Below, piece after piece: positions 3,730-32,234 of a stretch of DNA of 64,000 nt. Numbering within the stretch: position 1 is the stretch's first letter; each line of letters starts with the position of its first letter. The notes beneath the pieces are model-generated. The model did no database searches. It was not told the DNA's origin and saw only the letters and a program-made list of their open reading frames with translations. Source of the DNA: Patescibacteria group bacterium. GTDB lineage: Bacteria; Patescibacteriota; Patescibacteriia; UBA9934; GWF2-40-263. A program made the translations under genes and the position numbers. The stretch is taken from the NCBI GenBank assembly GCA_004297215.1, contig SCUM01000001.1, forward strand, positions 612,275 through 676,274, written 5' to 3'.

Positions 3730-3805
3730 GGGCCGTTAGCTCAGCTGGTAGAGCACCTGCTTTGCAAGCAGGGGGTCGTCGGTTCAAATCCGACACGGTC
3801 CACCA
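3730..3805 (+). tRNA. tRNA-Ala(TGC), canonical
   Basis: Cloverleaf, CCTGC-TTTGCAA-GCAGG anticodon arm, G3-U70, encoded CCA; TTGACT-17-TATGAT promoter upstream and hairpin terminator downstream. Confidence 0.97.
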
Positions 3806-8156: not shown

Positions 8157-8268
8157 GTCCCGGCGTCCACCTACTCTCGCCCAATCGGACTACCATCGGC
8201 CCCTGGCGGCTTAACTGCCGTGTTCGGGATGGGAACGGGTGTGACCCGCCGGGAACTGACACCGAGAC
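8157..8268 (-). rRNA. rrf: 5S rRNA
   Basis: CACACCCGTTCCCATCCCGAACACGG, GTTAAGC, GCCGATGGTAGT, GAGAGTAGG; terminal helix. Confidence 0.95.
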
Positions 8269-8320
8269 GCTGCCATGATTCGTACAGAGAAAACACGATT
8301 TCAGGATCCGATCTGAAAGT

Positions 8321-11404
<3,084 letters not shown>

Positions 11405-12876: not shown

Positions 12877-13008
12877 GGCTTCCTCCTTGTCGGTGCCGAA
12901 CCTTCTCTATCATCCTAAATGGACACGGTCAATCGAAAACCCACCGAACGCGCGGTGGGTTTTCTTGTCCCGGGCTCGAGCCGAAACGGCTCGCCAACCG
13001 AAGTCGGC

Positions 13009-13086
13009 TGGTGGAATCGACGGGATTCGAACCCGTATCTCTTGGTGGCAACCCTAGCGAGGTTAACCAGTTACCTCCACGATCCC
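13009..13086 (-). tRNA. Non-canonical tRNA-Ala-like RNA (anticodon probably TGC)
   Basis: Acceptor GGGATCG/CGATTCC+A+CCA with G3-U70, T arm ACGGG-TTCGAAT-CCCGT, 5-bp D stem, mismatched anticodon stem CTAGG/CCAAG, loop GTTGCCA. Confidence 0.75.
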
Positions 13087-13241
13087 GAATCCGAGCCCGG
13101 GATACACAAACAAAACGACCCCCATTTTAAGGAGGGTCGTTTCATTGCCACCAAGAGGATACCGTAGAGGTACTCACCAGGGTTAATGGTATTCAATCAC
13201 GAAATATCATTTCCGTCAACCCATCTCCTGTGGAAAACCGC

Positions 13242-16814: not shown

Positions 16815-17198
16815 ATGGAAGACGTTGAATTGCGGGAGGCCTTCGCCGGCATCCACAGACAGTTCGAGAAGATCGACCAGCGGTTCGACCGAATCGACCA
16901 GCGGTTTGAGATCATCGACCAACGATTTGAGATCATCGACCAACGATTTGATGCGATGGACCAGCGGTTCGATGGGCTTGAGACGAAATTCGGCGGACTT
17001 GAGACGAGGTTCGGCGGACTTGAGCAGCGCTTCGATGGGCTTGAGACGAAAATGTCAACGCAGTTCCGCATCGTCAACGAAAAGATTGATGACCTTGCCG
17101 CTGCAACGAAGGCCGGTTTCGAGGAAGCCGGCCGACGCATGGACGACATGGACGTCCGTATCCGCCTCCTATCCCTCGAACGGCGCGTCGCTTCCTGA
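16815..17198 (+). CDS. Heptad-repeat coiled-coil protein
   Basis: Tandem 21-nt repeats encoding IDQRFxx / LETxFGG. Confidence 0.75.
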   Translation: MEDVELREAFAGIHRQFEKIDQRFDRIDQRFEIIDQRFEIIDQRFDAMDQRFDGLETKFGGLETRFGGLEQRFDGLETKMSTQFRIVNEKIDDLAAATKAGFEEAGRRMDDMDVRIRLLSLERRVAS

Positions 17199-31358: not shown

Positions 31359-32234
31359 ATGACCCTGGGTGACTGGTGGAACCTGATCCGCGGCGTGCCC
31401 ACACAGGCCGGGCGGCCGCTGCCGGAAGGGTTCGTACACCCGTATGAGGACGCCGCCTACGTGATGGGCGGCTTCCGCACAAACGACTCGGCGATCCTTG
31501 TCCGAAACGGGTCTGTGCTTGGCGCGCGCTGGCGCGTGGGGCCGTTTAGCGTGGAGTCGTATTTTTCAGACACCGAGCCGTCAATCGCCTTGCACGATCG
31601 GCCGCGCATGGTGATGTGGCAGCCGCTCACGAGGCTCGACACACCCAAAGGCTGGTACCGGCCGCCCGTGCAGCTGCAGTCGCGCCAGCACGGGGTGGTG
31701 GACCTGGGGGCGGGAGGAGAATATTGGAAGGACTGGTCGAGCCACGCGCAGCGGCATCGGCGAAAATGGCTGCGCGACGAGGCGCACGAGATCGTGGAGG
31801 TCGCCTTCCCCGAATACGCGGCGGCGTACCGCGCCTCGGGCAAGCTCCCGTTCATGCGCGAGGACTTCCTCAAGATCATCGCGCGTCGGCTTGAGACGCA
31901 GGGCTCGAACATGCGCCTGCTCGTCGCGCGCGAGAAGGTGACGCGGCGGATCATCGCCGGCCTCGCCGTGCTCGACCTCCCCGACACGCGGCAAACGGTG
32001 CACGTGAGCGCCTTCCTCCATCCCGACGCCCATCGCACGAGCGTCGGCTACGGGCTCATCGACGCCTGGGCCTCCCAAAGCCTCGCCTCCGGCATCCGGT
32101 TCCTCTTCCTCGGACTCGTCTGGTACCCCGGCGACATGCGCGGCTGGAAGGGGTATTCCAAATTCAAGCGCCAGTTCGCTCCGCATCTCATCGTGTACCC
32201 GAATGCGTTGGTACGATTAGTGCGTAGGACGTAG
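31359..32234 (+). CDS. FemAB-like / GNAT-fold transferase
   Basis: VVDL..W.S.A.R.RRK, IIAG, FLG, GWKGYSKFKRQF pattern typical of the Fem/GNAT C-terminal domain. Confidence 0.7.
   Translation: MTLGDWWNLIRGVPTQAGRPLPEGFVHPYEDAAYVMGGFRTNDSAILVRNGSVLGARWRVGPFSVESYFSDTEPSIALHDRPRMVMWQPLTRLDTPKGWYRPPVQLQSRQHGVVDLGAGGEYWKDWSSHAQRHRRKWLRDEAHEIVEVAFPEYAAAYRASGKLPFMREDFLKIIARRLETQGSNMRLLVAREKVTRRIIAGLAVLDLPDTRQTVHVSAFLHPDAHRTSVGYGLIDAWASQSLASGIRFLFLGLVWYPGDMRGWKGYSKFKRQFAPHLIVYPNALVRLVRRT

Follow-up and report, generated by a model that had tools for sequence, protein, structure and literature searches.

A conserved tRNA-like RNA with alanine identity and an antisense partner against its anticodon arm in Patescibacteria: a possible protein-free toxin-antitoxin module

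The type I toxin-antitoxin loci, ibs/sib, txpA/ratA and tisB/istR among them, occur in multiple copies, in tandem, convergent or divergent layouts, and use cognate-specific antisense RNAs whose pairing is initiated at a loop, while SdsR/RyeA represents type VIII, an RNA-RNA toxin-antitoxin pair. T-box riboswitches, located upstream of amino-acid genes, combine a codon-sized specifier with pairing between the tRNA 3' end and the antiterminator. Type III systems (ToxIN/AbiQ, AbiF/RCd22) consist of a promoter, a short RNA, an intrinsic terminator and a guarded gene reached by read-through (PMC12373285), and in CreTA the mini-mRNA CreT sequesters a rare tRNA, CreA repressing its promoter through Cascade (PMC8501985). 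The allo-tRNAs (Mukai et al., PMC5389517; reviewed in PMC7609411) are non-canonical, some of them carrying G3:U70 together with non-Ala anticodons; they act as suppressors in E. coli, often lie near toxin-antitoxin genes, and two variants were lethal to cells (PMC5389517, PMC7609411). In staphylococci, a non-proteinogenic tRNA-Gly serving Fem ligases is devoid of G49-U65 and G51-C63 (PMC12256121), and the E. coli tRNA-LysT/tRNA-ArgU heterodimer provides a case of a tRNA sequestered by RNA base pairing (10.64898/2026.09.02.748885). G3·U70 is the main determinant of alanine identity (PMC9976931).

The locus described here lies in a window of 64,000 nucleotides (the whole stretch of DNA analysed) from a Patescibacteria group bacterium. 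A preliminary description had reported a minus-strand cloverleaf of 78 nt with alanine acceptor identity, an 11-bp helix closing it, two 3' hairpins (one with a UUCG loop) and a terminator, all of which are found in the sequence. The part of the cassette that presumably controls it, lying upstream, had been overlooked. The features are the following:

13237-13108, minus strand: whole control part of the tRNA-like/antisense cassette (promoter, antisense RNA, terminator), absent from the preliminary description
13229..13237, minus strand: 9-mer which we take to be DnaA-box-like from the DnaA consensus, about 10 nt 5' of the -35 element
13191..13219, minus strand: predicted sigma-70-type promoter (-35 TTGACG at 13219-13214, 17 nt, -10 TTGAAT at 13196-13191)
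13143..13185, minus strand: putative antisense part of the small RNA, from sequence complementarity, duplex energies and covariation
13185-13173, minus strand: block A', against the 3' strand of the D stem and the 5' side of the anticodon arm
13172-13161, minus strand: block C', an internal hairpin for which pairing with the 5' side of the D stem is possible
13164-13145, minus strand: block B', against the anticodon loop, the 3' strand and the variable loop
13108..13142, minus strand: intrinsic terminator separating the antisense RNA from the tRNA-like RNA (repeat search, fold energy)
13092..13102, minus strand: 5' strand (11 bp) of the closing helix of the tRNA precursor, pairing with 12978-12968
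13009..13086, minus strand: tRNA-like RNA, 78-nt cloverleaf (ARAGORN, Rfam, covariation, family model)
12978..13008, minus strand: optional 3'-trailer hairpins, 13008-12993 (UUCG) and 12992-12978
12968..12978, minus strand: 3' strand of the closing helix (fold and repeat search)
12935..12964, minus strand: final terminator (repeat search)

From the promoter at 13219, a small RNA of about 75 nt ending at the first terminator is predicted, its first 44 nt or so being antisense to the D and anticodon arms. A consensus promoter scan gave no call at 13191..13219; the support for this promoter is positional, since the antisense block begins 34-39 nt after the start of a TTGAY element in 115 of 122 cassettes. 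The terminator hairpin of the antisense RNA has a median energy of -17.4 kcal/mol in 119 cassettes, and a CCCGGG-like 5' motif marks the closing helix in 107 of 137 relatives, while the 3'-trailer hairpins are variable inserts, missing in many of them. The region of 201 nt folds better than 200 of 200 shuffles (z -4.5). When the 78-mer is folded alone, the energy model prefers another structure to the cloverleaf (z -1.3), which leaves covariation as the support for the D and anticodon arms.

ARAGORN calls the window copy tRNA-Ala(tgc), in keeping with the isotype first proposed. On the Rfam tRNA model it reaches a marginal 29.7 bits, whereas the window's six other tRNAs score 53-74, and beyond this match no Rfam family was found in the cassette; a tmRNA fragment had been named as one way in which the proposal might fail, but the RNA is not one, its score on the tmRNA model being 31.5 bits, against a cut-off of 47. 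The acceptor stem carries G1-C72, G2-C71 and G3·U70, followed by A73 and an encoded CCA. The irregularities pointed out originally are likewise present: a 5-bp D stem, an A·A mismatch in the anticodon stem and the loop GUUGCCA (13052-13046), that is, G32 U33 U34 G35 C36 C37 A38, to which a 4-nt variable loop can be added. The normal tRNA-Ala(TGC) said to make it redundant for translation is indeed located at 3730. Compared with a canonical tRNA-Ala, the acceptor identity is there, and an Ala anticodon, a purine at 37, a 4-bp D stem and an intact anticodon stem are not characteristic of the family.

A family model, R1, was built from 37 cores. It assigns 88-96 bits to the four copies of the source genome (89 to the window copy) and at most 54 to the ordinary tRNAs there. 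Within the order, 87 of 148 genomes contain matches to it, 213 in total and 1-9 in each, a small number of the lowest-scoring ones being perhaps divergent or ordinary. The cassette was not found in the other 61 of these 148 genomes, some of them rated 100% complete. In 151 genomes drawn from the phylum, with 31 candidates scored per genome, nothing outside the source genome exceeded 63 bits, and 151 genomes of the class gave six weak matches outside the order, three being divergent cassettes with the same leader and three normal tRNA-Ala(UGC) genes. Among the matches listed, named records with this main form are mostly labelled Ca. Uhrbacteria. A regular expression applied to part of the 213 matches yielded 139 cores, reduced to 137 by removing one divergent and one duplicate; 11 further model matches missed by it have the same layout by eye. 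Besides the window copy, the source genome contains three cassettes, four in all:

C1:273604-273679, plus strand: ARAGORN tRNA-Ser(tga), with its own putative antisense leader
C1:398247-398323, minus strand: ARAGORN tRNA-Ser(tga), with its own putative antisense leader
C2:121412-121488, minus strand: ARAGORN tRNA-Ala(tgc), with its own putative antisense leader

Several individual loci deserve mention in their own right. In the same class, two ordinary tRNA-Ala(UGC) genes (L105:1501-1574 and L109:1501-1574) have a 4-nt variable loop and a cassette-like closing leader-trailer helix ending in GGGAC, and could represent an ancestor of the tRNA-like RNA. L238, L239 and L280 show a rearranged 5' half of the D arm and seemingly offer a choice of two 5' strands for the acceptor; the leader nonetheless matches the anticodon arm. 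L226 presents a tandem pair of antisense-leader and terminator units 5' of one tRNA-like RNA, and in L273 the upstream leader is decayed and the downstream one intact.

In 104 model-selected distinct sequences the four stems covary, with 95% of the cells paired and 344 double-sided changes, a result equalled by 0 of 500 shuffles, and the acceptor pairs G1-C72, G2-C71 and G3·U70 are invariant (104/104). The invariance of G3·U70 is quoted from this set because the regular expression imposes U70 on its 137 cores. A73 is invariant in 37 of 37 sequences, CCA is encoded in 114 of 137 cores, the GG of the D loop is kept in 135 of 137, G51-C63 in 118 (window copy included) and G49·U65 in 34. The decaying pseudogene named as a refuting outcome is not what the homologues indicate; the comparison supports a conserved non-standard RNA with alanine identity, the part of the original interpretation that stands. 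Furthermore, the host genome encodes AlaRS, RNase P RNA, RNase III and a gene of the CCA-adding/poly(A) polymerase family.

The anticodon arm is hypervariable except for its loop, with the consensus N-U-U-G-N-C-A. U33 is present in 128 of 129 copies and C37 in 116, a mismatch interrupts the anticodon stem in 114 of 129 (at 31·39 in 73), and within the source genome position 37 is a purine in 46 of 46 ordinary tRNAs and C in all four tRNA-like copies. Read at 34-36, the 129 anticodons include UGA (70), UGU (15), CGA (8) and UGG (8), which amounts to Ser in 78 of 129 copies, Ala in 17, Thr in 16 and Pro in 8; read at 35-37, they resemble the canonical loops for Val (GAC, 71), Gly (GCC, 17) and Asp (GUC, 16). 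The near-universal U33, the U/C wobble base at 34 and the beginning of the antisense pairing at 34 favour the first register, and C37 together with the 31·39 mismatch may make the RNA a poor decoder. ARAGORN calls ordinary tRNAs for 132 of the 137 copies, so that Ser, Ala and Thr tRNA counts are inflated in annotation.

The second component, missed previously, is the RNA directed at this arm. In the window, a repeat search shows 13157-13145 to be a perfect 13-nt complement of 13051-13039, which spans the anticodon loop, the 3' stem and the variable loop, and the duplexes of the antisense blocks with the tRNA-like RNA are calculated at -21, -18 and -30 kcal/mol, the blocks competing in part. 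The blocks follow one another in a circularly permuted order: the small RNA mirrors a D/anticodon domain that has been cut open at the loop, which lets it form a stem of its own while the anti-loop bases stay free. The anti-loop tail is predicted to be unpaired to 0.67, compared with 0.27-0.29 for the stem blocks. Strand exchange is calculated as favourable in 119 of 119 cassettes, with a mean of -19 kcal/mol as a rough sum of parts which ignores the crossed topology.

With leader windows set from the promoter alone in 133 of 137 cassettes, the cognate pairing score was 19.4, versus 12.2 for non-cognate combinations and 13.0 for the best of 10,000 permutations. The cognate leader was unbeaten in 83 of 133 and within the top 5% in 128, and among copies sharing a genome the cognate partner was strictly the best in 90 of 98. 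Sixty-three disjoint nearest pairs, covering 126 of 129 cassettes, contained 380 changed tRNA positions, of which 287 were compensated, 47 kept by G·U and 46 broken in at least one member, figures which are not counts of single events because the pairs are mostly distant. Watson-Crick pairing of positions 34-42 is found in 108-120 of 122 cassettes, that of U33 in just 58, and copies with an Ala anticodon (17 of 129, the window copy among them) are guarded as well as the others, with 18.3 versus 18.2 of 19 pairs. Since the partner always covers the anticodon loop, the loop appears to be the business end of the molecule.

The kind of mispairing identifies the strand on which selection works. In the 122 of 129 cassettes whose 22-nt arm passed a threshold based on Watson-Crick pairs alone, the non-Watson-Crick positions of the duplex were G·U in 116 cases and A·C in 18, an excess pointing to the RNA strand. 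This bears on a selfish, harmless repeat whose antisense block would be a by-product of copying, an explanation which would suit the patchy, multi-copy, intergenic distribution and the shifting sites; G·U and A·C should be equally frequent in a DNA inverted repeat, and the retention of G3·U70, the T loop, CCA (114/137) and a promoter at fixed distance is hard to reconcile with it, making this origin highly improbable. We regard RNA-RNA pairing between the two partners as almost certainly real on this comparative evidence.

The polarity could conceivably be the reverse, with the short RNA as an effector on host tRNAs or mRNAs and the tRNA-like RNA as its sponge, given that the short RNA is expected to outnumber its partner and that its tail would match the GAC/GCC-type loops of host tRNAs. 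Nevertheless, for each of the four short RNAs of the genome, the best pairing among 50 tRNA calls is with the tRNA-like RNA of its own cassette, and it is the tRNA-like RNA that keeps functional determinants, the short RNA being unconserved outside its loop-matching bases; this arrangement is hardly credible.

Another explanation would confine the pairing to a single molecule. In the read-through transcript, leader and arm are predicted to pair in cis, and the leader mirrors the entire D/anticodon domain in permuted order, both of which would agree with a cis pairing that gates maturation or termination, or with leader and tRNA assembling into an RNA of two pieces whose top half can be charged. 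The evidence against it comes from the wider family. A pattern combining loop, T arm and acceptor end, which itself imposes loop and spacing, was run on GTDB, metagenomes and 401 genomes of the phylum (12 of the latter with a match, three of them chance-like). The matches listed comprise 195 distinct G3·U70 cores, many of the main form, and 157 of these 195 have an antisense block over the loop behind a -35-like site, located upstream in 125, downstream on the same strand in 14, convergent in 16 and divergent in 2. As a null, 417 of 4830 mismatched combinations pass the same partner test, and its score part alone is passed by 6 of 46 ordinary tRNAs. In the other forms the antisense is frequently a single run of 14-23 nt that starts about 31-36 nt after the beginning of the -35 element and runs into its own or a shared terminator. 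Downstream, convergent and divergent antisense genes with their own promoter suggest that the antisense RNA can act in trans; such partners, with promoters and terminators of their own, cannot act in cis, and the attack on the loop is all that the forms have in common. Obligate cis action or a two-piece complex is consequently improbable.

Carriers among the matches listed are labelled, as deposited, Magasanikbacteria, Giovannonibacteria, Nealsonbacteria, Paceibacter, Saccharibacteria, Peribacteria and Gracilibacteria, and some records labelled Gammaproteobacteria carry the same cassettes. A candidate convergent pair with an 11-nt complement was located in a cultured alphaproteobacterium, Chelativorans multitrophicus DSM 9103 (L351:1500-1750), between genes for an IrrE-type peptidase and a HigA antitoxin; two other pattern matches, neither tRNA-looking, were all that 150 relatives of Chelativorans provided. 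For 38 of the 195 listed cores no partner was detected within 300 nt (three have short flanks), among them forms from Acidimicrobiia and Palauibacter. The Acidimicrobiia loci (L208, L218, L219, L227, L234-L236, L243, L244, L262, L267, L287, L295, L307, L322) are tRNA-like RNAs with G3·U70 that share the loop motif and have a conserved GC hairpin on the 5' side, with no antisense partner within 340 nt, and make up a related family. Ca. Palauibacter (L249, L255) has a tandem pair of Ala-type tRNA-like genes which again show this loop motif, with a short hairpin between them, and its apparent 'partners' were discounted as tandem copies. A pattern search for orphan antisense genes was insensitive, missing even the genome's own cassettes.

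The surroundings of the cassettes are not conserved. Among 414 neighbouring ORFs, a set including some shadow frames, 285 are singletons and the largest clusters are housekeeping genes, with no recurring partner protein or integrase family. A genome of the same genus (G001) also contains four copies and has one of the four sites in common; at the site of the window copy it has no cassette, a hydrolase gene being followed directly by a similar terminator hairpin. No mobilising gene, target duplication or clear phage or plasmid copy was found: blastn of the window cassette against phages, and of the Chelativorans copy against phages and plasmids, gave no match, and two pattern scans of IMG/VR gave 2 + 2 matches, of which L021 and L022 were rejected as family members for failing to match the model, L324 lacks a cloverleaf and no partner was detected for L325, an Ala-type tRNA-like RNA.

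Seven cassettes with seven different arms (L103, L129, L136, L141, L147, L165, L184) adjoin, in both orientations, a gene with an apparent isoleucyl-tRNA synthetase motif, possibly an insertion hotspot. The source genome also has a lone closing-helix strand with terminator (C1:385170-385228), 81-93% similar to two cassettes of G001 and directly 3' of a gene whose end resembles, by eye, a HigA-type antitoxin; it may be the scar of a lost cassette. In the window itself, 23S and 5S rRNA genes occupy 8158-11403 on the minus strand, with no 16S in the window; close to its 5' end the 23S is interrupted by two insertions, one of about 63 nt and one of about 70 nt. A link with this 23S gene, 1.6 kb downstream of the cassette, was discarded, RlmH-type and other genes lying between and the neighbours of relatives being unrelated. 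An ORF with heptad-like repeats (RFD/RFE motifs) adjoins tRNA-Gly at 16825-17198 on the plus strand. A small toxic peptide was also dismissed, as 0 of 137 cores have an SD followed by a start at 5-12 nt.

Starting from its alanine identity and non-standard loop, the preliminary description had proposed that the RNA might donate alanine to a non-ribosomal, Fem-type transferase, citing a FemAB-like gene at 31359. The protein encoded there does have a GNAT/FemAB-like fold as predicted in the Atlas, although a single-sequence prediction reaches a pLDDT of 35 and sequence searches of Pfam, NCBIfam and PDB gave no match. Its relatives appear fused to methyltransferase domains in the Atlas cluster (window 31359-32234, plus strand). 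The gene lies 18 kb away, without any conserved neighbour joining it to the cassette, and the protein matches 50 of 148 genomes, 33 of them RNA carriers; it was not found in 54 of 87 carriers (Fisher p 0.22, for this one protein query), nor in a genome rated 100% complete with nine cassette copies (G018). The RNA moreover keeps G51-C63, and a donor role would leave the conserved, blocked anticodon loop unexplained. A Fem role is therefore unlikely, and we attach very little probability to it.

Alternatively, the tRNA-like RNA could be a useful, non-lethal helper of translation under an RNA switch, performing low-level recoding or a rescue like that of tmRNA but tag-less, with the antisense RNA blocking it until a signal (e.g. 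DnaA, stress) shifts the ratio. The DnaA-like box, found in three of four copies versus 1 of 46 ordinary tRNAs of the genome, suggests host control and is also compatible with a useful regulated RNA; a CCACA box within 30 nt 5' of the -35 element occurs in 45 of 114 cassettes versus 8 of 169 promoter-like sites, a control which includes non-promoters. The strongly conserved loop, the lack of a visible partner in some relatives and the scores of the four copies on the tmRNA model (30-36 bits, above all ordinary tRNAs) would also fit a helper. These scores, however, stay under the 47-bit cut-off, and a full tmRNA (C2:7938-8338, 113 bits) and SmpB are both encoded in the genome, which also led us to reject replacement of tmRNA. 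Besides, the RNA was not found in 61 of 148 genomes, and a helper would have no need for up to nine mutually orthogonal copies with fast-changing arms and sites. On these grounds the helper function is possible but doubtful.

We consider it somewhat probable that the cassette is a protein-free toxin-antitoxin module in which an alanine-charged tRNA, misreading codons or slipping the frame, serves as the toxin. A copy-specific inhibitor in excess, a patchy multi-copy spread and the lack of any protein constitute the logic of such modules; the two-RNA anatomy, the specific pairing at RNA level and the patchy spread emerge from comparison among relatives. One promoter would give rise to an abundant short RNA ending at the first terminator, the layout of which fits an excess of antitoxin, and occasional read-through would produce the tRNA precursor, to be matured by RNase P and 3' trimming. 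AlaRS would charge the tRNA-like RNA with alanine whatever its anticodon, and the charged RNA would enter the ribosome on EF-Tu and corrupt translation, placing alanine at Ser, Thr or Pro codons and/or causing slippage. The free 3' tail of the short RNA would pair with loop bases 34-38, both strands then exchanging with the D and anticodon stems, an exchange which the built-in mismatch of the anticodon stem may drive. Transcription, the read-through ratio, charging, ribosome entry and toxicity are steps which we infer for the cassette RNAs. The chances are even, in our opinion, that a widespread class of protein-free toxin-antitoxin systems, possibly anti-phage, exists in which a mirror-image small RNA unzips the anticodon arm by toehold-started strand exchange; in such a class, new specificities would arise by co-mutation of arm and mirror. 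As each copy guards its own tRNA and no other, copies with new arms would be independent addiction units.

A loop with two registers and an unmodifiable C37 could slip the frame. The pyrimidine at 37 makes the loop readable one base later (GAC, GCC, GUC), with slippage as a possible consequence, and either register would place alanine at wrong codons. This frameshift argument relies on general knowledge, no C37 frameshift data having been found in PMC3617221. The main weakness of the toxin-antitoxin reading is in the copies with an Ala anticodon: being equally guarded, they imply that plain missense at 34-36 cannot be the whole toxicity, and they would need the second register, slippage or harm independent of decoding.

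If the tRNA is toxic, the cassette would be a toxin-antitoxin system of some 300 bases, without protein and with mistranslation as its weapon, and bacteria with tiny genomes could carry addiction or defence units invisible to protein-based searches. Even if it is not toxic, it would be a natural switch for a code-altering tRNA, and more than 100 orthogonal pairs could be of use for the synthetic control of suppressor tRNAs. A full-text literature search, in which few subscription papers were covered, returned no account of this family, nor of any antisense RNA dedicated to the anticodon arm of a tRNA. It is a real, conserved and probably undescribed two-RNA system, with a plausible mechanism.

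Regarding the systems cited at the beginning, a T-box riboswitch was rejected, with no T-box match in Rfam, a pairing which extends over about 19 arm positions and a gene behind the terminator that is the tRNA-like RNA itself. The tRNA-like domain of tmRNA (Rfam RF00023) is similar in its G3·U70 acceptor and its T arm and, as predicted for the cassette RNA, can be charged without a cognate anticodon; the cassette RNA differs in having D and anticodon stems and neither tag frame nor pseudoknots. The staphylococcal tRNA-Gly is also an extra, atypical tRNA beside a normal isoacceptor; loss of the EF-Tu pairs and co-occurrence with a transferase, which would mark a Fem-dedicated tRNA, were both not observed here, and no Fem gene is linked. 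Allo-tRNAs have an 8/4 or 9/3 acceptor branch, whereas the cassette RNA has a 7/5 branch with covariation and so falls outside them; the term 'antisense' has 0 occurrences in the main texts of PMC5389517 and PMC7609411 and in one supplementary file, and neither of the two loop-motif matches examined, out of three in the supplement of PMC5389517, is within an anticodon loop. In the tRNA-LysT/tRNA-ArgU heterodimer both members are ordinary housekeeping tRNAs, without a dedicated antisense gene.

Among toxin-antitoxin systems, type I differs in that the target is a peptide-coding mRNA, here replaced by a structured tRNA-like RNA. CreTA is marked by a mini-ORF containing rare codons and by an antitoxin derived from a CRISPR repeat next to cas genes. 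The presumed toxin also sets the cassette apart from it, being itself tRNA-shaped and blocked through direct base pairing; the cassette has no adjoining Cas genes, no mini-ORF and no recurring neighbour family. Type III has the same order of short RNA, terminator and toxin; its toxin is an RNA-bound protein, while in the cassette the gene after the terminator encodes a tRNA-like RNA and no protein toxin. Type VIII is alike in that both parts are RNA and the presumed toxin acts on translation: the cassette comprises two adjacent RNA genes without a protein toxin, and covariation is what indicates that the putative antitoxin pairs with its own toxin.
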